Shown piece after piece: positions 87 through 9,956 of a DNA stretch of 64,000 nt. Position numbers and translations under genes: made by a program. The notes below the pieces were generated by a model that was given only the letters and a program-made list of their open reading frames with translations, ran no database searches and was not told where the DNA came from. The DNA comes from Candidatus Atabeyarchaeum deiterrae (GTDB lineage Archaea > Asgardarchaeota > Atabeyarchaeia > Atabeyarchaeales > Atabeyarchaeaceae), in contig CP147780.1 in NCBI GenBank assembly GCA_037310415.1, positions 992,001 to 1,056,000 of the forward strand, given 5' to 3'. How positions within the stretch are numbered: the stretch's first letter is position 1; every line of letters begins with the position of its first letter.

Positions 87-926
87 TTGATCTTGCGGCA
101 GCAGAATCCTGTTTTGAGCGAGATAGCCCAATCTGGGGAGAAAATGAGAATTACAGAGGGAATCGAAATTGTTGAGAACTACCCGGCTGTCTTCATAGAG
201 CCCTTGGACACTCTCGTTGTGGCAGATCTACATCTTGGTTTCGAACGAGAACTGGCAGAAAGCGGTATTTTCCTTCCTCACTTCCAATATCAAGACATAA
301 AGGAATCAGTGGCATCGATCGTCAGCCGAGTATCACCAAGACAAGTCATAATCAATGGAGATTTGAAACACAAGTTTGGCGAAAGAACCACACAGGAATT
401 GAATGAAGTCATCGACTTACTCGACTATCTTACTCAAAATTCTGAGAAGGTTGTTGTGGTAAGAGGAAATCATGACAACTTCGTCAAGGGACTGTTCGCA
501 AGATACCCGAAGGTAGAGTTTGTGGAAACATTCTACTCTGAAGGCAGTTTCATTTTCACCCATGGACATGAGATCTGGGGTGGGATCGAATCGGAGAGGT
601 CCGGCGTTTTGGTGATAGCGCATGAGCACCCGGCCATAGCACTCAGAGATGATGTCGGAGTCAAAGTGAAACTGAGGGCCCTCCTCGCCGGCAAGACAGA
701 TACGAATAAGGACTTAATAGTGCTGCCAGCATTCTCACCGATCTCGCTAGGCGGCGAAGTCAACTTGGTGACTGACAACGAGCAGATACTATCGCCATTC
801 CTGAAAACCCGAGGAACTCTCATGAGGATGAGGGCATATGCAATAGATGCAAGATCTGGTATCTTCAGCTTCCCAGAACTGAGATACTGGTCTGGCACTG
901 AACCAAGAAGAAAGGTTTCGCGCTGA
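87..926 (+). CDS. Metallophosphoesterase (ICC-like, calcineurin-like superfamily; type usually associated with Lhr); likely start ATG 144
   Basis: Motifs ADLHLG, INGDLKH, RGNHD, THGH, AHEHP, VLPAFSP. Confidence 0.85.
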   Translation: MILRQQNPVLSEIAQSGEKMRITEGIEIVENYPAVFIEPLDTLVVADLHLGFERELAESGIFLPHFQYQDIKESVASIVSRVSPRQVIINGDLKHKFGERTTQELNEVIDLLDYLTQNSEKVVVVRGNHDNFVKGLFARYPKVEFVETFYSEGSFIFTHGHEIWGGIESERSGVLVIAHEHPAIALRDDVGVKVKLRALLAGKTDTNKDLIVLPAFSPISLGGEVNLVTDNEQILSPFLKTRGTLMRMRAYAIDARSGIFSFPELRYWSGTEPRRKVSR

Positions 927-1063: not shown

Positions 1064-1990
1064 TTGCGCGCAAAGGCATTTTGCCCAGGTCACATAACAG
1101 GTTTCTTCGAGATCTGCGACGAACTCAGTGATCCACTTAGACGTGGATCACGTGGCGCAGGTGTATCGATAACAAAGGGAGTACTTACAGAGGTGACAAT
1201 CGAGGAATCAAGTTCAACTAAGGTGCAGAGTTACATAAATGGTAAACTATCTCTAGCTCCAGTAACAAGAAAAGTAGTCAGCCAGATGTTTGCGTTACGG
1301 AAGGATAGAAGGGATTGGCAAGTGTCAGTCAGACACGATTCACAGGTGCCTGTCGGATGTGGTATCGGCTCAAGCGGTGCGGGAGCATGGGGTACTGCTC
1401 TTGCTCTGAATTACCTATTCCAACTGAATTTGACTCATGACAGGATTGGACAAGTAGCTCATCAAGCCGAAGTTGATGAGAAGACGGGACTTGGCACAGT
1501 TCTTGCGCAGCAAAAAGGAGGAATTGAAATACGAACGAGTCCAGGTGCTCCAGGAATCGGTCATGCGGATCAACTGCCATTCAACCCAGATCTACGAATA
1601 GTCTACAGTTCGATTGGTCCCATCTCAACAAGAGCCATGCTCTCCGATCCTGCCGTAAAAGCAAAAATCAACGAGTTTGGTGCAGAATACGTTCAACAAT
1701 TATCGAACAATGCTTCTCCCAAAGAACTTATGAGTCTATCCAGACGATTCGCAGAACAAACTCAACTACTGTCAAGAGAATTGAGAATAGGCTTGGAGTT
1801 GCTTGATGAACATGGATTCCGTGACTCCAGCATGGCCTTATTTGGAGAGACGATCTTCAGCCTCGTGTGGATAGAAGAGGTTGAGACCGTAGCTGACGTC
1901 CTCAGACAATGGAACCAAAAAGGTGAAACTCATTCAGCTGAGATCGACGTGATTGGAGCAAGGTTAGTGGAGTGCGAAAGAGATGTCTGA
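1064..1990 (+). CDS. pok: Pantoate kinase (GHMP family)
   Basis: N-terminal AFCPGHITGFF, GSRGAG, PVGCGIGSSGA, AHQAEV..TGLGTV; overlaps pps. Confidence 0.9.
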   Translation: MRAKAFCPGHITGFFEICDELSDPLRRGSRGAGVSITKGVLTEVTIEESSSTKVQSYINGKLSLAPVTRKVVSQMFALRKDRRDWQVSVRHDSQVPVGCGIGSSGAGAWGTALALNYLFQLNLTHDRIGQVAHQAEVDEKTGLGTVLAQQKGGIEIRTSPGAPGIGHADQLPFNPDLRIVYSSIGPISTRAMLSDPAVKAKINEFGAEYVQQLSNNASPKELMSLSRRFAEQTQLLSRELRIGLELLDEHGFRDSSMALFGETIFSLVWIEEVETVADVLRQWNQKGETHSAEIDVIGARLVECERDV

Positions 1991-2777
1991 GATCCCTGAA
2001 ACACATCCTAGATCAGCTTCGCTGAGAATAAGGGAGCGTCTAATAGAAGGATTCAAACAAGGTTATGTCGCAATGGCAGGTTTGATCGCTCATGGTCGGG
2101 GTGAAGCATTCGACTATTTAATTGGAGAGTTAAGCATCGACGCGGCTCTGGTTGCAGCGAAGGTGGGCGCAGCTGCGCTATTGATTGCGAAGCATCCAGT
2201 CATAAGTGTCAATGGCAACTTAGCAGCTCTGGCGGCGAGGGAAACGATCGAGCTCGCACAGCTGACTAACTCGAAGACTGAAGTCAACCTCTTTTACAGA
2301 ACGCCTGAACGCGAATTGATCATTGAAGGTGTCTTGAAGGAAGCAGGCGCTTCTGAGGTTCTGGGAGTTCAAGACTCAGCAAGCGCGACCATACCAGAAC
2401 TTGATAGCAGAAGGAGAAGAGTGGATCCCCGCGGAATTCTTGTTGCGGACGTTGTTCTCGTCCCTATGGAGGATGGAGACAGAACTGAGGCCTTGCGAAA
2501 AATGGGTAAGACTGTGATAGCGATTGATTTGAATCCAATTAGTCGGACAGCTAAGGCTGCAAGCATAACTATCGTTGACAATGTTGTGAGAGCCATGCCA
2601 AACCTCGTACTCGAGGCAAGCAAGTTGAAAAGCGAAGGAAAGAAGTCAGAACTCGAGAGGCTGGTCAAAGGATTCGACAATAGGAAGAATCTTGTAGATT
2701 GTCTTTCTCAAATCTGGAATGGAATTTCAAGATTAAAGAAGGACGGTTTTCCTTCCACATTTGATGAAGATGTTTAA
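1983..2777 (+). CDS. pps: 4-phosphopantoate--beta-alanine ligase (archaeal phosphopantothenate synthetase)
   Basis: HPRSASL, GLIAHGRGEAFDYLIGE, SVNGN, VNLFYRT, VPMEDGDR, IDLNPISRT. Confidence 0.93.
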   Translation: MSEIPETHPRSASLRIRERLIEGFKQGYVAMAGLIAHGRGEAFDYLIGELSIDAALVAAKVGAAALLIAKHPVISVNGNLAALAARETIELAQLTNSKTEVNLFYRTPERELIIEGVLKEAGASEVLGVQDSASATIPELDSRRRRVDPRGILVADVVLVPMEDGDRTEALRKMGKTVIAIDLNPISRTAKAASITIVDNVVRAMPNLVLEASKLKSEGKKSELERLVKGFDNRKNLVDCLSQIWNGISRLKKDGFPSTFDEDV

Positions 2778-2842
2778 TACTGATTCTGGCAATAGTATTG
2801 TACCTTCAGTAATTGAACGAATAAGGAATATGTTCACAATCC

Positions 2843-4183
2843 GTGATTCTGGGAGGCGTCAGACTAGCAATGGGTGAATCCAAAGAGCAACGAAAACCCA
2901 TTCTTCAAGTCGCTCTTGACTTTGAGAACCTGCACCGTGCGGTCCAAATAGCATCTGAAGCGGTCAAGGGCGGAGCTGACTGGCTTGAAGCTGGGACCCC
3001 CCTGATCAAGAGCGAAGGTTTGCAGGCCGTAAGAGAATTTAGAAAGCGATTCCCTGACAAGGTGATAGTCGCTGACATGAAGACCATGGACACTGGCAGG
3101 TTTGAGGTAGAGATAGCTGCCAAGGCTGGAGCTCAAATAGTGATTATACTCGCGACCGCCGATGACAGCACAATCAAGGAGGCAGTTGAAGCTGGTCGCA
3201 ACTACGGCGCTCAAATAATGGTCGACTTGCTTAATGTCAACGATATGGTGTCTAGGGCGGTAGAATTGGAAAAGTTGGGTGTTGACTACATTTGCGTGCA
3301 CATAGGCATCGACCAACAGATGCGAGGCATGAAAGCTGAGAATGTGATCAAGCAAGTTGCAGAGGTTGTCCATACTCCCATAGCTGCAGCCGGTGGCGTG
3401 AACTCTGAAAACGCTCCGACCTTGGTTGAGGCTGGTGCCCAGATAGTGATTGTTGGGGGCGCAGTGACAAAAGCTGAAAACGCTGAGGAAGCGGCTCGAA
3501 CGCTGAAGAAGACAATGCTGACAGGGAAGCCAATAGCCACGAAACTCTACAAGAAGTACGCTGAGGAAGAGATTGTGAAAGTGTTCAAGATGTGTTCAAC
3601 GCCAAACATATCTGACGCTATGCACAGACGCGGCGAGATGAAAGGTATCGTTCCGATTGCGCCTGGTTTCAAAATGGTTGGAAAAGCATTGACTGTGAGA
3701 ACATATCCAGGCGATTGGGCAAAGCCTGTTGAAAGCATAGATGTTGGTAGCAGGGGGGACGTCATAGTCATTGAAGCTGGTGGGCAGGGTCCAGCCGTGT
3801 GGGGAGAACTTGCATCATGGAGCTGCAAGACACAGGGTATCGAAGGAGTCGTGATAGACGGTGCCATAAGAGACGTTGAAGACATTAGAGAGCTGAAGTT
3901 ACCTGCATTTTCACGACTAATCAGTCCAACGGCAGGCGAACCGAAAGGATTCGGCGAAATAAACATTGACATAACATGCGGAGGAGTCAAGGTTAGACCC
4001 GGCGACTACATTATTGGTGACGACAACGGAGTCGTAGTAGTCCCAAAAGAATCGGCTGTAGAAATCGCCAACAGGTCAATTGACGTAAGAGAGAAGGAAA
4101 ACAGACTGCGAGAAGAGATCAAGAGAGGCAGTACTCTCTCGAAAGTCCAGAAATTGAGGCAGTGGGAAAAAGTTATCGGGTGA
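2843..4183 (+). CDS. 3-hexulose-6-phosphate synthase (HPS) fused to an RraA/HMG-aldolase-like domain; likely start ATG 2870
   Basis: HPS barrel: LQVALD, EAGTPLIKSEG, ADMKTMD, HIGIDQQ, AAGG. RraA-like C-domain: NISDAM, WGE-x20-RD, PGDYIIGDDNG. Confidence 0.88.
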   Translation: MILGGVRLAMGESKEQRKPILQVALDFENLHRAVQIASEAVKGGADWLEAGTPLIKSEGLQAVREFRKRFPDKVIVADMKTMDTGRFEVEIAAKAGAQIVIILATADDSTIKEAVEAGRNYGAQIMVDLLNVNDMVSRAVELEKLGVDYICVHIGIDQQMRGMKAENVIKQVAEVVHTPIAAAGGVNSENAPTLVEAGAQIVIVGGAVTKAENAEEAARTLKKTMLTGKPIATKLYKKYAEEEIVKVFKMCSTPNISDAMHRRGEMKGIVPIAPGFKMVGKALTVRTYPGDWAKPVESIDVGSRGDVIVIEAGGQGPAVWGELASWSCKTQGIEGVVIDGAIRDVEDIRELKLPAFSRLISPTAGEPKGFGEINIDITCGGVKVRPGDYIIGDDNGVVVVPKESAVEIANRSIDVREKENRLREEIKRGSTLSKVQKLRQWEKVIG

Positions 4184-4251
4184 AGTTGACTCTCAGAGCT
4201 ACTCACTTCGCTTTCGTTCTATTCGCCAGACAATAATGGTCTATCGGTGAA

Positions 4252-5211
4252 GTGGTTTTGCGATTAGTTGTTCTTGGAGCAGGCGCTATAGGCAGCTTGT
4301 TCGGCGGTCTGCTATCAGAGGCTGGTTTAGATGTTGTATTGATAGGAAGGTCTTCGCATGTTAAAGCCATCAAATCCCATGGACTACACATCAATGGAGT
4401 CAGCGGCCGCAGAATACTGAAACTCAGGTCTGAGGCGAAGGTTTCAGCAATAAAGGAAAAGTCGGATATCGTTTTATGCACAGTCAAGGCTTATGATACG
4501 AAACAAGCAGCCATCGATGCGAAGCCTCTGATTGGAGAAGACTCTCTGTTTTTATGCATCCAGAATGGTCTCGATGTCGAGAGAGAAGCTGCCGAAGTGT
4601 TCGGAGCAAGTAGAACAGAACGAGGAGTCACTAACAATGGCGTCCTATTCACAAAACCAGGTTACATCAATCACACAGGCTTGGGAGACACCCTCATCGG
4701 CTGTTCCAATAAACAATGGCAAAAAAGAATCGATGGGCTGGTAGAATCCCTGAACAAAGTGGGTCTACCTTCCAAGGTGACCGGCGATATTCAGAAAGTC
4801 GTCTGGTCAAAGGTTCTCATCAATGTAGGTATAAACGCAATAGGCGCATTAACACACCTCAGGAATGGAGACCTTCTAGCGAGACCGCACCTGAAGGACT
4901 TAATGAGGTCGGCTGTAAATGAGGGATTGAATGTCGCTGACAAGCTTGGGCTTAACTTTAGAGAAGAGGACATCGTCGAGAAAACCTTTAAGGTTGCTAA
5001 GGCAACATCCTTGAATAAGAATTCGATGCTTCAGGACTTGGAAAAAGGTCGAAGAACAGAAATAGATTTCATAAACGGAGCCATCGAGAAGACTGGGAAG
5101 ACCATCGGAGTGCCCACACCAGTCAATAGTACGCTCACAGCATTGTTGAAGGGACTAGAATCTAGGATCGGGAAAGAGCAGACGCAGACAGGAACAATTT
5201 CAGCCTTTTGA
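4252..5211 (+). CDS. panE: 2-dehydropantoate 2-reductase (ketopantoate reductase)
   Basis: GAGAIG, VKAYD, QNG, WSKVLIN, NSMLQD, RTEIDFINGAI. Confidence 0.92.
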   Translation: MVLRLVVLGAGAIGSLFGGLLSEAGLDVVLIGRSSHVKAIKSHGLHINGVSGRRILKLRSEAKVSAIKEKSDIVLCTVKAYDTKQAAIDAKPLIGEDSLFLCIQNGLDVEREAAEVFGASRTERGVTNNGVLFTKPGYINHTGLGDTLIGCSNKQWQKRIDGLVESLNKVGLPSKVTGDIQKVVWSKVLINVGINAIGALTHLRNGDLLARPHLKDLMRSAVNEGLNVADKLGLNFREEDIVEKTFKVAKATSLNKNSMLQDLEKGRRTEIDFINGAIEKTGKTIGVPTPVNSTLTALLKGLESRIGKEQTQTGTISAF

Positions 5212-5227
5212 AAAGGAGAGAAGGTTC

Positions 5228-6394
5228 TTGGAAGAAGCGGGTATTGCGACAGAGAGAGTCCTAAAAGAACTAGAGGAACACACCAGAGACGACTTCACAA
5301 ATGACTCAGGTAGAATACTTGGCTCCATGATATGTAAGCCTCACGAATTCGCGGTCGAAGTCTACATGAAGTACATTGAGAAGAATCTTGGAGATCCAGG
5401 ACTGTACCCAGGCGTAGGTAAGATTGAAAAAGAGGCTATTCGAATGATAGGGTCGCTACTCAGTCACCCCAAAGCTTACGGTAACATTGTGACTGGAGGT
5501 TCTGAGGCCAATTTGATGGCGATGGCAGTTGCTCGGAATATGAGAAAAGACATACGCAGACCGGAGGTCATTCTTCCAAGATCAGCCCATGTTTCCTTTG
5601 CAAAAGCGGGTTGTCTACTTGGTCTCCGCGAAAGAAAGGTCGGACTGACTAGATTCTTTGAAATGAATGTAGACGAATTACGAAAATCAATCACGAAGAA
5701 CACTGTCGCCATTGTTGCCGTGGCAGGCACGACGCTTCTGGGCGTGGTTGACCCAATTAAAGAGATCTCCGAGATAGCTGACGAAAACCAGATATATCTC
5801 CATATAGACGCTGCTTTCGGTGGATTCGTAATTCCTTTTCTTAAAGAGCTCGGCTATTCTGCGCCAGAGTTTGACTTCAAACTCAGAGGAGTCTCTTCGA
5901 TAACTGCAGATCCACATAAGATGGGCTTTTGCCCGATTCCTTCAGGAGGAATACTCTTCAGGAAACAGAACTACGTCAAATACAACAGTGTCAAGGTTCC
6001 ATATCTTGCCGGAGGGATTGCAACCCAAGGAACGATAGTAGGTACGCGGAGCGGGGCATCCGCGTGTGCTGTTTGGGCCCTTATGAAGCACCTTGGTCGA
6101 GAAGGATTTAGGGAACCTGTTAAACACTGCATGGAACTCACGCACTACCTTGCAGATGAAATCGAACGCTTGGATGGTGTTGAACTCACGGTTCCACCCA
6201 CAGTTAACATTATAGGGATCAGATCAAAGGACTACGCAATCCGATCCATCTGGAAGAAACTGAGAGACATAGGTTGGGCCGTTGGTGGACTTAGAGAGTC
6301 ACTTCGCGTCGTGATTCTCCCCCACCATCGGCGCGAGCATATTGACGCTTTCCTTACGGATCTGAAAACTGTGCTGCGCGACATGGGAAAATAG
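5228..6394 (+). CDS. mfnA: Group II PLP-dependent decarboxylase (MfnA family); by context probably aspartate 1-decarboxylase
   Basis: GSMIC, NLGDPGLYPG, TGGSEAN, HIDAAFGGF, DPHKMG, GTRSG; last gene of the CoA operon. Confidence 0.85.
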   Translation: MEEAGIATERVLKELEEHTRDDFTNDSGRILGSMICKPHEFAVEVYMKYIEKNLGDPGLYPGVGKIEKEAIRMIGSLLSHPKAYGNIVTGGSEANLMAMAVARNMRKDIRRPEVILPRSAHVSFAKAGCLLGLRERKVGLTRFFEMNVDELRKSITKNTVAIVAVAGTTLLGVVDPIKEISEIADENQIYLHIDAAFGGFVIPFLKELGYSAPEFDFKLRGVSSITADPHKMGFCPIPSGGILFRKQNYVKYNSVKVPYLAGGIATQGTIVGTRSGASACAVWALMKHLGREGFREPVKHCMELTHYLADEIERLDGVELTVPPTVNIIGIRSKDYAIRSIWKKLRDIGWAVGGLRESLRVVILPHHRREHIDAFLTDLKTVLRDMGK

Positions 6395-6450: not shown

Positions 6451-7155
6451 CTAAATGAATGTCTCAACACAGTCTGCCGCAAGTTTGATGTGCTCGTTGC
6501 CATGATTCATGACAGGATTCATGTGTCCTGGCAACAAGTGTTTTACATTTAGTTTCGCGAGCATCTTTATCGATCTTATCAGAGCTTCTGGATCGCCCGT
6601 TGGAAAGTCGACCCTTCCAAAGCCTCCATCGGCGAAGACCGTGTCTCCTGAGAAGAGTATGCTGTTTTTCACATCAAATAGGCAAATGCTCCCAGCAGTG
6701 TGACCTGGGGTACTCATGACCTTGAGTTTCATTCCGCCAGCTTCGATGATCTCCCCGTCCTTGAGTCTGACGTCGACTTTAGTTGGAGGAAAACTGACTC
6801 CCATCATCGTCGCTAAAAGAACTGGTCCCTTCCCGGACTCAATATATGGTGCCTCCAAATCATACACATATACCTTGGGCGAACAATCAGACACAATCTT
6901 TGGGAGTCCACCCGAGTGGTCTATGTGAACATGCGTGAGTACAGCCCTCTTAACATTCTGTCTCGTCAACCCAAGCGATTCGACAAGTCTGTAGATATTG
7001 GAAACGAAGAGTCCGGTTCCAGTATCAATCAGGGTGATTTCTTTTCCATCTTTGAGGACATAGACATTGGCATCGAATCCAACACCTTGGACTAAGTACA
7101 CTCCTTCAAGCAGCTGCAAGAATAGATACCTCCAATTAGATTGCGATCTACGCAT
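6451..7155 (-). CDS. MBL-fold metallo-hydrolase (glyoxalase II-like)
   Basis: THVHIDHSGG, TPGHTAGS, FSGDTVF, PGH. Confidence 0.85.
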   Translation of the reverse strand: MRRSQSNWRYLFLQLLEGVYLVQGVGFDANVYVLKDGKEITLIDTGTGLFVSNIYRLVESLGLTRQNVKRAVLTHVHIDHSGGLPKIVSDCSPKVYVYDLEAPYIESGKGPVLLATMMGVSFPPTKVDVRLKDGEIIEAGGMKLKVMSTPGHTAGSICLFDVKNSILFSGDTVFADGGFGRVDFPTGDPEALIRSIKMLAKLNVKHLLPGHMNPVMNHGNEHIKLAADCVETFI

Positions 7156-7282: not shown

Positions 7283-7615
7283 ATGCCAAAAAGCGAACCG
7301 TTTGTCGAGGAAGTAGAGCGAAAACTAACCAAGTTGAAAAATGGTTCTGGTGTAGAAGGCGTTTTCATAATATCAAAAGAAGGGTTGCCTATAGTGAGCG
7401 TCGGCCCTCAGGGTGAGGATGCTCTTGAGGTTATTGGTCCAATCTCCTCAACACTTCTCCAAGTTCTTAATGAGAACAGGAGAAAACTGTTCTGCTACTT
7501 CTTGGGCGATGGAGTTCTGTTGGCAGCAACATCAGACGACAGAGGAAAATTGAACAAAGTCGAGAAATGGGTTAGAAAGAACTCTAGGGAGATTTATGAG
7601 CGGTTCCTGAAGTAA
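7283..7615 (+). CDS. Roadblock/LC7-like small protein
   Basis: Helix, then GVEGVFIISKEGLPIVS, helix and LLAAT strand; typical roadblock pattern but shortened. Confidence 0.55.
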   Translation: MPKSEPFVEEVERKLTKLKNGSGVEGVFIISKEGLPIVSVGPQGEDALEVIGPISSTLLQVLNENRRKLFCYFLGDGVLLAATSDDRGKLNKVEKWVRKNSREIYERFLK

Positions 7616-7689
7616 GGCATCCAGAATACACCTGAAAGTCTGTGACTGCAAAAGGAAGACGCCATCATTATCCTAAATGAGGTGGAATT

Positions 7690-8079
7690 GTGAGTGGGCC
7701 ATTCGGTGCCGAAGACATAATTGAAGCCCCGCTGGAAACAATACGGAAAGCTGCCGAAGAAGTTCTGGGCGGAGATCCAAAAGAAGAGACACTGAAGGAC
7801 GGTTCCACGACTTTCACGAAGAATGTAACGCAATGTCCTCCCCAGATCAGAGTAATACCTCTAGGAAAAACTAAGTTCCGCATTATATCTACGTCTCTAT
7901 GCAATATCAAGGATTGCGACTACTGGCGGCGCTGTGCAGAACTTGATAGCGGGAATATGCAAGAGCTTAAGGAGGCAGTCGCCAAGCTTCAAGGGAAGAC
8001 ACTACCGCACGCAGAGAAGAAATGGACAATAGCACAGGGTAAGAGCGGGCACGTCGTTGATGATGCATTGAGGAAGTAA
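7690..8079 (+). CDS. Hypothetical protein with Cys cluster
   Basis: SD-like GAGGTGG upstream of GTG; CNIKDCDYWRRC. Confidence 0.55.
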   Translation: MSGPFGAEDIIEAPLETIRKAAEEVLGGDPKEETLKDGSTTFTKNVTQCPPQIRVIPLGKTKFRIISTSLCNIKDCDYWRRCAELDSGNMQELKEAVAKLQGKTLPHAEKKWTIAQGKSGHVVDDALRK

Positions 8080-8140
8080 GCAGAAAAGTGTGGATATCAG
8101 AAGTAGGACAGGATGAGTTGACACGGCAGAGACCTGGGCC

Positions 8141-8902
8141 TTGCATGTTAGTCCTCCAGAGGGAAGTGACATGGAACGTCACATTGAGAGACTCACGTAC
8201 GTCGAAGTTAAGAAGCTAATCGAAGAAGGCAAAGACACGGTAGTTCTTCCGATCGGGACAATTGAAGCACACGGACCGCATTTGCCGCTCGCGACTGATG
8301 TCCTTATTCCTGTCAGCTTGGCAGAGAGGATAGCGGATACCTTGGATGCTCTGATTGCTCCGCCGATTAGCTATGGGATAACGCGCTCATTGCTAGCATA
8401 CTCTGGTTCTTTGACTGTATCATCGCAAGTGTTCAAGGAATACGTAAAGGGAATTCTGGAGAGTCTTGCTAGGCACGGGTTCAAAAAGGTTATCGTAGTC
8501 AATGGACATGGCGGTCACCTGAACGAGCTGAAAGAAGTTGGTATGGAGATTTGGTCCGGGTTCCGACTGAAAACAGTGATGTTTCATTGGTGGCTTGCTC
8601 TAGGCGAGTTTACGAAAGAGTTCTTCGGGGAGCAAAGTGGACATGCGGCCATTGATGAGACCGCTATGATAATGGCAATTGACGAGAACCTCGTAAAAGA
8701 GGAGCTCTACTCAGAACAGGCGGTTGCAACAAACATGCAGGGTGTAGATGTCTACCCCTTTCATGGGTCGGTTATCTTGTACAAGAAGGGTGAGGGGTTC
8801 CCAGTCTTCGACGCGTCCAAGGCAACTGAATATTATGAAGGCGTCGTGAAGAACACCATTGAACTATTGAAAGAGATCTTGGATAAATGGAACAGTATAT
8901 AG
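8141..8902 (+). CDS. Creatininase/creatinine amidohydrolase family protein; likely start ATG 8171
   Basis: PIGTIEAHGPHLPLATD, NGHGG, GHAAIDET. Confidence 0.88.
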   Translation: MHVSPPEGSDMERHIERLTYVEVKKLIEEGKDTVVLPIGTIEAHGPHLPLATDVLIPVSLAERIADTLDALIAPPISYGITRSLLAYSGSLTVSSQVFKEYVKGILESLARHGFKKVIVVNGHGGHLNELKEVGMEIWSGFRLKTVMFHWWLALGEFTKEFFGEQSGHAAIDETAMIMAIDENLVKEELYSEQAVATNMQGVDVYPFHGSVILYKKGEGFPVFDASKATEYYEGVVKNTIELLKEILDKWNSI

Positions 8903-8939: not shown

Positions 8940-9956
8940 TCAATCGGTGTTCGTCTGAGGCAGACTGAGAGTCTGTTTGAATGTTGTCTCATACCTCTGT
9001 TTGACTTCTTTATATGTGAAGAGGTGTTCTTGTGGGCCTTCCCCCTCAACCACGAATGAGCCAACTATTGCTCCGAGCTTAGCTGAGTCCTCAAGAGAAA
9101 GTGAATTCAGTAGTCCAGCTAGAATCCCAGAACGGTAGCCGTCTCCTGCTCCAGTGGAGTCATGGAAAACTCTGGGTTTTGCTATTGGTATCTGCTTAAC
9201 ATAGCCGCGTCCGTATAGTTTTGACCCCTTTGATCCTTCCGTGACAATTACATTTGGTACATCCGACAGAATCTTCTCTATCGACGTATTCAACTTCCTT
9301 TTCACCAACTCAATCTCGTGAGTATTTGCTATCAGTAGCATAGACTTCGGGATTATCTCCATAAGCTGTTCGGGAGTGAATGCGGGAACAACCTGTCCAG
9401 GGTCGAATACAAACGGTATGCGAAGCTTGGCCAGTTCCTGCGTGTGGCTGACAAAAGCATCGACTGGGTTGGGAGCCACGATGGCGAGTTTGACTTTGTT
9501 GAGGTCACTCCCAAGCGCCTTTTTCAATGAAATTGCGCCTGCGTGCTTAAGCGCACCTGGGTGGAATATGGTAAGCTGGTTGTTCGTCGAATCGCTGATA
9601 ATGTAAGCAGCGGCTGTATGTTCATCGGGTTGCACAGTTAGCCTCACATCAACTCCCACTTTTCGAAGATGGCTATCATATTTCATTGCTACAAGATCTT
9701 GGCCGGCAGAAGAAACAGCGATCGCCCTTGTCCCAAGAAGCGCAAGGTTGTACGAGATGTTCCCAGCAGTTCCTCCAAACCTGACTCTCAAACTGCCCAC
9801 GTTGAATGAACCGACCAAGTTCTGGTCGGCATCTGGGACTATCACGTCTCTGAATCGGCCGTCGAACTTCATTATGTAATCGAAGGCGATTGAACCAAGA
9901 ACTAGGACGGCATTATCCATTCTTCTCACCATTTCTGGGAAATGTGATTCACGCAT
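8940..9956 (-). CDS. PfkB-family nucleoside/carbohydrate kinase; likely start ATG 9920
   Basis: GSIAFD, GGTAGNISY, FDPGQ, VTEGSKGS, DSTGAGDGYRSG. Confidence 0.88.
   Translation of the reverse strand: MRESHFPEMVRRMDNAVLVLGSIAFDYIMKFDGRFRDVIVPDADQNLVGSFNVGSLRVRFGGTAGNISYNLALLGTRAIAVSSAGQDLVAMKYDSHLRKVGVDVRLTVQPDEHTAAAYIISDSTNNQLTIFHPGALKHAGAISLKKALGSDLNKVKLAIVAPNPVDAFVSHTQELAKLRIPFVFDPGQVVPAFTPEQLMEIIPKSMLLIANTHEIELVKRKLNTSIEKILSDVPNVIVTEGSKGSKLYGRGYVKQIPIAKPRVFHDSTGAGDGYRSGILAGLLNSLSLEDSAKLGAIVGSFVVEGEGPQEHLFTYKEVKQRYETTFKQTLSLPQTNTD

Follow-up and report, generated by a model that had tools for sequence, protein, structure and literature searches.

The 64,000-nucleotide stretch of the Candidatus Atabeyarchaeum deiterrae genome analyzed here (contig CP147780.1, positions 992,001 to 1,056,000; the window) carries five co-oriented, closely spaced genes on the plus strand at window positions 1064-6394, which the open reading frame listing and family scans identify as pok, pps, a fusion of HPS (3-hexulose-6-phosphate synthase) with an RraA-like domain, panE, and mfnA. 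An earlier note on this DNA had described the same five genes and proposed that the fusion takes the place of a missing panB in coenzyme A (CoA) synthesis; the frames, their strand, and the family scans bear out the first of these claims, and the second is considered below. The first gene, pok (1064..1990, plus strand), codes for a pantoate kinase-like GHMP kinase (PF00288) predicted to convert pantoate to 4-phosphopantoate; its best NCBIfam matches, NF041122 (175.8 bits) and NF040725 (148 bits), are both under the equivalog cut-offs, other GHMP kinase models score at most 42 bits, and orthologues are present at the same position at loci L004, L018, and L121. The pps gene (1983..2777, plus strand) codes for 4-phosphopantoate--beta-alanine ligase (phosphopantothenate synthetase), with matches to PF02006 (239 bits), NF010324 (351 bits; cut-off, 227), and NF041123 (303.4 bits, above its cut-off). 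The fusion gene (2843..4183, plus strand; 446 residues), a candidate ketopantoate synthase gene, probably starts at the ATG at 2870, with GGAGG just upstream. It is followed by panE (4252..5211, plus strand), coding for 2-dehydropantoate 2-reductase (TIGR00745 at 270.7 bits against a cut-off of 141, with PF02558 and PF08546 both matched), and by a gene for an MfnA-type pyridoxal phosphate-dependent decarboxylase making beta-alanine from aspartate (5228..6394, plus strand; TIGR03812, 478.3 bits; cut-off, 299). The pok and pps genes overlap by 8 nt, and the following intervals are 65-92 nt (pps-fusion), 68 nt (fusion-panE), and 16 nt (panE-mfnA). By family assignment, the operon genes account for the whole route to phosphopantothenate that begins with ketopantoate and aspartate.

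The fusion protein matches NF005442/PRK07028 at 656.9 bits (cut-off, 593) over profile positions 2-428 of 430; a search of its own genome returned it at E=8.3e-198, and its closest named relatives are from Atabeyarchaeia, which belong to the Asgard archaea. The N-terminal half contains an HPS domain with an OMPDC-type barrel (2900..3517, plus strand; residues 21-225) that belongs to TIGR03128 (223.6 bits; cut-off, 200), and the C-terminal half contains an RraA-like/class II aldolase domain (3599..4039, plus strand; residues 253-399) that matches PF03737 at 161 bits, with a conserved C-terminal helix then extending to 4180. The motifs quoted in the earlier note (ADMKTMD, HIGIDQQ, and E-x20-R-D-x2-D) are all in the translation, within VADMKTMD, VHIGIDQQ, and WGEL-x-IRDVED, respectively. 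Mean column identity is 64% over 34 archaeal and bacterial members of the fusion family, and among these homologues the D-x-K-x-x-D motif (ADMKTMD), E40, H144, and D148 of the HPS half are invariant, as are E313, R334, and D335 of the RraA half (numbered from Met10). An AlphaFold2 (AF2) model of the fusion has a predicted local distance difference test score (pLDDT) of 89 and a predicted template modeling score (pTM) of 0.70. Foldseek pairs the HPS half with 3ajx at a template modeling score (TM) of 0.91, and the RraA half with 3k4i (TM 0.85) and with the HMG/CHA aldolase 3noj (TM 0.80). Sequence alignment places the E/R/D of the fusion (WGEL...IRD) opposite D102/R123/D124 of 3noj, which we take to be metal and enolate residues.

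The fusion protein is neither of the characterized proteins that its RraA fold brings to mind, since it scores far under the equivalog cut-offs both for LigK/PcmE (TIGR02798, 109.3 bits against 304.5; NF006731, 122.7 against 179) and for the RraA ribonuclease E regulator (TIGR02998, 42 bits against 241; NF006875, 60.5 against 136). The HMG/CHA aldolases/oxaloacetate decarboxylases (LigK/PcmE, 3noj) and the RraA-like proteins have the RraA fold and the metal/enolate residues in common with the fusion; unlike LigK/PcmE, the fusion carries an HPS domain, and its proposed donor is 2-oxoisovalerate and its proposed acceptor formaldehyde. None of the Pfam matches to the fusion protein is to the PanB family (PF02548), and PanB (EC 2.1.2.11) and the fusion have no sequence or fold relationship, although they would have the same product and a metal-dependent enolate chemistry in common. 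They differ too in the source of the one-carbon unit, which is 5,10-methylene-tetrahydrofolate for PanB and is proposed to be hexulose-6-phosphate or formaldehyde for the fusion. An architectural parallel is Fae-HPS (PF08714 and PF00215; found in methanogens and Asgard archaea), in which HPS is likewise joined to a domain that consumes or delivers formaldehyde, with no need of free diffusion; there the partner condenses formaldehyde with tetrahydromethanopterin, whereas in the fusion it is an RraA-fold aldolase with a 2-oxo acid as the proposed acceptor.

The operon leaves ketopantoate formation uncovered, and the rest of the genome does not fill this gap. The genome is a single contig of 2,756,679 bp and 97% complete, and a search of all of it with PF02548 gave no match at E<=1, whereas the same search was positive in 11 of 14 control genomes; the absence of panB from the window, reported in the earlier note, thus extends to the whole genome. 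Nor was panC found in the genome, which fits the use of PoK and PPS in archaea. That 2-oxoisovalerate can be made is shown by the presence of three IlvD homologues. The genome also codes for a separate Fae-HPS (L002), adjoining the gene for GAPDH, and for 6-phospho-3-hexuloisomerase (PHI), the latter above the curated cut-off. These two cover the reverse ribulose monophosphate (RuMP) route to pentoses, and the fusion in the operon is therefore an extra copy of HPS. A second PHI-like frame lies ~27 kb upstream of the window start (C1:965093-965650; 114 bits, below cut-off) and has one in-frame TGA; the frame could be a pseudogene or be recoded at this codon, or the sequence could be in error there.

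If the fusion does the work of PanB, the two genes should tend not to occur together, a comparison that the earlier note had called for, and we compared their distributions in about 600 genomes. A species-level scan (one genome per species) recovered >570 fusion relatives, and the best 80 loci were examined. panB is present in six of the 80 genomes carrying these loci and in none of the 54 that are archaeal, 48 of which have PPS; PanC is present in 22 of the 26 bacterial carriers, and the panC neighborhoods that we inspected also have panD and folK. These bacteria therefore make both pantothenate and folate, yet do so without PanB. Among 301 Thermoplasmatota genomes, 192 have only the fusion, 82 have only panB, one has both, and 26 have neither (Fisher p=3e-49, uncorrected for phylogeny, which overstates the significance because relatives are not independent). 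The corresponding numbers for 201 genomes of the Asgard phylum are 20, 157, two, and 22. In one class of Actinomycetota, 47 of 51 genomes carry the fusion and none of the 51 carries panB, yet panC is present in the members tested. Fusion and panB are thus complementary in four separate taxonomic samples, with strong anticorrelation in three large samples as well as in bacteria.

The signal belongs to the RraA fusion, as HPS on its own shows no tendency to be absent where panB is present. HPS of any form (TIGR03128, E<=1e-30) occurs in 141 of the 201 Asgard genomes, including the panB-rich families f4 (24/24), f12 (14/14), and f20 (11/12), as well as all 45 members of family f9. The distribution also follows the need for ketopantoate: each of the 21 Asgard families in which PPS occurs carries the fusion or panB, and the four that lack PPS (f2, f10, f11, and f15) carry neither. 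Outside these four families, the Asgard genomes without either gene are scattered single metagenome-assembled genomes (MAGs) in families that otherwise bear panB. As would be expected of a functional analogue, the fusion is thus found in genomes that lack PanB but keep PPS or PanC, and, as described below, it uses the genomic position of PanB in Asgard family f9.

Gene neighborhoods were read at the 80 best loci and at 19 further Asgard loci. The order pok-pps-fusion-panE is found in Atabeyarchaeia and Hecatellales, and adjacency of fusion and panE also in Nezhaarchaeales, in a Nitrososphaerota-labelled MAG, and in Asgard families f8 and f18; panE directly follows the fusion at loci L003, L004, L005, L007, L018, L108, L111, L112, and L115. 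A Methanofastidiosia MAG has pps preceding the fusion, and one f9 genome (G558) has the order pok-fusion-panB-panE-pps-mfnA, in which panB is confirmed at 369 bits. Clustering with pok, pps, or panE, which the earlier note had suggested looking for, or with mfnA is therefore found in several unrelated archaeal lineages, and in at least five lineages the fusion forms part of a pantothenate operon. The Asgard fusions fall into three separate clades of the protein tree (f1, f8 with f18, and f9 with f21), so the link to pantothenate genes is not one inherited arrangement.

The strongest single piece of evidence that the fusion replaces PanB is that it displaces panB in place in Asgard family f9. 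The genes of a block conserved in this family are, in order, mfnA, a DUF2100 gene, genes for a zinc-ribbon protein and a Ras-like GTPase, one variable slot, and a gene for a class IV (branched-chain type) aminotransferase. The slot is occupied by panB in five f9 genomes (L131-L135) and in two (L120 and L123) by the fusion, accompanied by a RagA-like GTPase gene; in a third genome with the fusion (L119), only the flank on the mfnA side is shared, and other genes lie downstream of the fusion. Identities of 63-69% for mfnA, 46-47% for the GTPase, and 71-74% for the aminotransferase indicate that the flanks are orthologous. One of the class IV aminotransferases is the branched-chain enzyme producing 2-oxoisovalerate, the substrate of PanB. 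The exchange reaches down to a single genus (g47), in which G600 has the fusion without panB, and G528 and G534 have panB without the fusion. Mutual nearest relatives in the protein tree are the fusions of three genomes: G558, in which the two genes lie side by side; G597, which has both at separate places; and G600, which has the fusion alone. This resembles a series of steps in which the fusion was gained, the two genes coexisted, and panB was lost. We note that eukaryote-like small GTPases flank the f9 slot, some of Ras/Roc type with 470-600 aa and a C-terminal zinc ribbon and others Gtr1/RagA-like (L119:4028-5695; L106:4079-5497 and 7358-8314; L120:7566-8507).

Phyletic complementarity, its specificity to the RraA fusion, clustering with pantothenate genes, and displacement in the same slot together support replacement of PanB, and the comparative genomics thus upholds the proposal in the earlier note of a candidate folate-independent ketopantoate synthase in PanB's place. 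We consider it likely that the fusion is the ketopantoate-forming enzyme, and it is probably a non-homologous replacement of PanB that feeds ketopantoate to PanE, PoK, and PPS, for which we propose the following mechanism. The separate PHI of this genome would convert fructose-6-phosphate to D-arabino-3-hexulose-6-phosphate, from which the HPS domain, judging from homology and the activity of the Methanospirillum hungatei fusion, would release ribulose-5-phosphate and formaldehyde. The RraA-fold, metal-dependent aldolase domain would bind 2-oxoisovalerate, form the C3 enolate at its Arg-Asp/Glu site, and add the formaldehyde, and PanE, PoK, PPS, and MfnA would then take the product to 4′-phosphopantothenate. 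A folate or methanopterin carrier would be unnecessary, with the sugar phosphate playing that part. We are somewhat less confident of the handing over of sugar-derived formaldehyde from the HPS to the RraA domain than of the product. The broader reading, probable but held less firmly than ketopantoate formation itself, is of a ketopantoate synthase with a sugar phosphate (hexulose-6-phosphate/ribulose-5-phosphate) rather than folate as hydroxymethyl carrier. It would form the main route to pantoate and CoA in most PanB-less archaea, namely methanogens of the Methanosarcina and Methanospirillum type, most Thermoplasmatota, and several Asgard and TACK lineages, and would be used in several anaerobic bacterial phyla as well.

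Several observations weigh against this interpretation. Most of the Thermoplasmatota and bacterial copies of the fusion are not beside pantothenate genes: at 26 Thermoplasmatota loci the downstream neighbor is a co-oriented DUF362/4Fe-4S gene, at 15 bacterial loci a UPF0047 gene is near the fusion (mostly directly upstream or one gene further), and bacterial neighbors also include genes for FolD, pterin-binding proteins, and 2-oxoacid:ferredoxin oxidoreductase. Nine genomes have both fusion and panB, namely G097, G558, G597, three Pirellulales, a Clostridia MAG, an unclassified bacterium (G076), and a Deltaproteobacteria-labelled MAG (G029). The three Pirellulales, the Clostridia MAG, and the unclassified bacterium fall within one subclade of the protein tree, and the "Deltaproteobacteria" copy, on a 2.7-kb contig and nested in the Actinomycetota clade, is probably a binning error. 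The genome counts are phylogenetically non-independent, and many of the genomes are incomplete MAGs. Formation of a quaternary carbon is chemically demanding, and we know of no RraA-fold aldolase that accepts formaldehyde or 2-oxoisovalerate, or that enolizes a 3,3-disubstituted 2-oxo acid. Finally, no bona fide PHI was found in any of five bacterial carriers checked, in which hexulose-6-phosphate therefore cannot come from fructose-6-phosphate by a known enzyme. The sugar-fed route is possible in the source genome, where PHI is present, and to that extent the transfer of formaldehyde from HPS to RraA set out in the earlier note stands; as a general statement it is weakened by these five bacteria. 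In PHI-less bacteria, either HPS traps formaldehyde, which ribulose-5-phosphate then carries, or an isomerase has yet to be recognized.

Such trapping suggests a rival account, on the whole unlikely, in which the fusion still makes ketopantoate and HPS captures free formaldehyde on ribulose-5-phosphate, as a catalytic one-carbon carrier, and releases it at the aldolase site. The formaldehyde could arise by spontaneous breakdown of methylene-tetrahydrofolate or methylene-methanopterin; in an alternative version, the aldolase takes its one-carbon unit from elsewhere and HPS serves only as a buffer. The HPS catalytic residues are invariant in bacteria even though the five carriers lack PHI, the bacterial copies lie among one-carbon and folate genes (FolD, pterin-binding methyltransferase, and Wood-Ljungdahl-type), and the phyletic and synteny evidence fits this account equally well. 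PHI is nonetheless present in the source genome and in many archaeal carriers, making the sugar-fed route available there, and bacteria may have an isomerase that has escaped recognition, for which the abutting UPF0047 gene is one candidate.

Rather more doubtful is the proposal that the fusion is a plain RuMP-pathway HPS for pentose synthesis or formaldehyde fixation, with an RraA-like domain that is regulatory or unrelated (for example, an oxaloacetate decarboxylase), and that its anticorrelation with panB reflects lineage and type of one-carbon carrier, not function. The M. hungatei fusion has measured HPS activity and was placed in the hexulose-phosphate pathway (PMC5241800), the genome paper on this lineage puts its HPS genes in the RuMP pathway (PMC11291895), and most copies are not clustered with pantothenate genes. 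Such a role leaves much unaccounted for: HPS taken as a whole shows no anticorrelation with panB among the Asgard genomes, the source genome already has Fae-HPS and PHI, and the bacterial carriers that we checked have folK, panC, and panD but neither panB nor PHI. Moreover, the fusion takes the panB slot within one family and even one genus, it belongs to pantothenate operons in at least five lineages, and its aldolase-type Arg-Asp/Glu residues are invariant. Very improbable is that the aldolase domain joins formaldehyde to pyruvate, giving 4-hydroxy-2-oxobutanoate for formaldehyde assimilation or detoxification with an indirect pantothenate link. This agrees with the pyruvate-enolizing HMG/CHA aldolases as nearest solved relatives and with the one-carbon neighbors of the bacterial copies, but it leaves unexplained the absence of panB from just those genomes that have the fusion and keep PPS or PanC, the displacement of panB from its slot beside a branched-chain aminotransferase, and the place of the fusion between pps and panE.

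Replacement of PanB by the fusion must also be set against what is known of the protein itself. Kono et al. (2017) expressed the M. hungatei fusion (Mhun0647) as "HPS-MenG" and left the function of its second domain unexplained (PMC5241800). Its HPS activity of 0.21 U/mg is ~30x lower than the 6.05 U/mg of Fae-HPS (PMC5241800), which fits a low-flux cofactor role. NF005442/PRK07028, named [quoted passage not shown], is like the window protein in its two-domain architecture, and so is Mhun0647, which we relate to the window protein from its described architecture. The database name implies a ribonuclease regulator, and neither this name nor PMC5241800 ties the family to pantoate; Methanosarcina acetivorans, a control, also carries a family member and lacks panB. 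The genome paper on Atabeyarchaeia, with its assignment of HPS genes to RuMP, is silent on pantothenate (PMC11291895), and the archaeal CoA pathway has been termed complete from Thermococcus, which has PanB (PMC6650551). A full-text literature search, with subscription-only papers outside its scope, found no paper linking an HPS-RraA fusion, or any RraA-fold enzyme, to ketopantoate, and no assay of ketopantoate formation by the fusion. The caution of the earlier note about novelty was therefore justified: the fusion protein is already known as HPS-MenG, while its proposed link to pantoate was absent from the papers searched.

The genes beside the fusion in other lineages invite some further comment. 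At L019 the stop codon of a UPF0047/YjbQ gene (6575-6994; 139 aa) abuts the fusion start, and 14 other loci among L016-L080 have such a gene; the UPF0047 protein could be a partner of the fusion or the missing isomerase in PHI-less bacteria. We rejected it as an obligatory partner, as the two copies in the source genome lie a long way from the operon. The UPF0047/YjbQ family is also common in organisms that contain PanB, and so is not specific to the fusion. The DUF362 protein of Thermoplasmatota has, for example, 334 aa and two 4Fe-4S motifs at L010:1551-2555, and beyond its gene lie a GPR1/FUN34/YaaH-type or putative carbonic anhydrase gene, a major facilitator superfamily transporter gene, and a gene for a class I (Leu/Ile/Val-type) tRNA synthetase.

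HPS and RraA domains also occur in other contexts in these genomes. The source genome has a second, standalone RraA-like gene (232 aa; L104:1366-2064, C1:1960852-1961337) between genes for a LarA-like protein (lactate racemase family) and an aldehyde:ferredoxin oxidoreductase; it has no linkage to CoA genes, and we rejected it as CoA related. Asgard family f15 codes for an RraA-like protein of 233 aa, 42% identical to the RraA domain of the fusion (L127:6948-7649 in G428 and L128:6987-7688 in G439), adjoining two 691-aa GH57-like genes and a gene for HMG-CoA reductase. We considered standalone RraA as a substitute in the Asgard genomes that have neither fusion nor panB and rejected this too; f15 also lacks PPS, and its protein is therefore uninformative about pantoate. 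Longer HPS fusions, in open frames of ~590-860 aa with HPS domains scoring ~215-221 bits, are found in the panB-containing Asgard families f20 and f21 and in single members of f4 and f24 (genomes G506, G562, G488, G595, G529, G465, G603, G526, and G498).

Five genes flanking the operon have no evident link to CoA synthesis. They code for a metallophosphoesterase (SbcD-related archaeal type; window positions 87-926), an MBL-fold hydrolase (6451-7155, minus strand), a Roadblock/LC7 domain protein (7283-7615), a creatininase-family amidohydrolase (8141-8902), and a PfkB-family sugar/nucleoside kinase (8940-9956, minus strand). In one wetland metatranscriptome run, 6% of the sampled words were present. 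Two ~200-nt contigs from wetland RNA (four runs) map to 3245-3432 in the fusion and to 6018-6229 in mfnA; this is a weak sign of expression and too little for co-transcription, with DNA carry-over possible. A scan for promoters and terminators gave nothing above shuffled expectation, using a bacterial consensus that is ill suited to an archaeon.

To our knowledge, the route to pantoate in archaea without PanB has been a gap in accounts of CoA biosynthesis ever since the earliest comparative reconstructions. Should the fusion be the ketopantoate synthase sought, this gap would be closed for a sizable part of the archaea and for some bacteria, and the widespread database name "ribonuclease regulator" would be corrected. 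A folate-independent enzyme that forms a carbon-carbon bond and builds a quaternary carbon would also be of interest for biocatalysis, and in organisms that use it, cofactor synthesis would be tied to the hexulose-phosphate pool.

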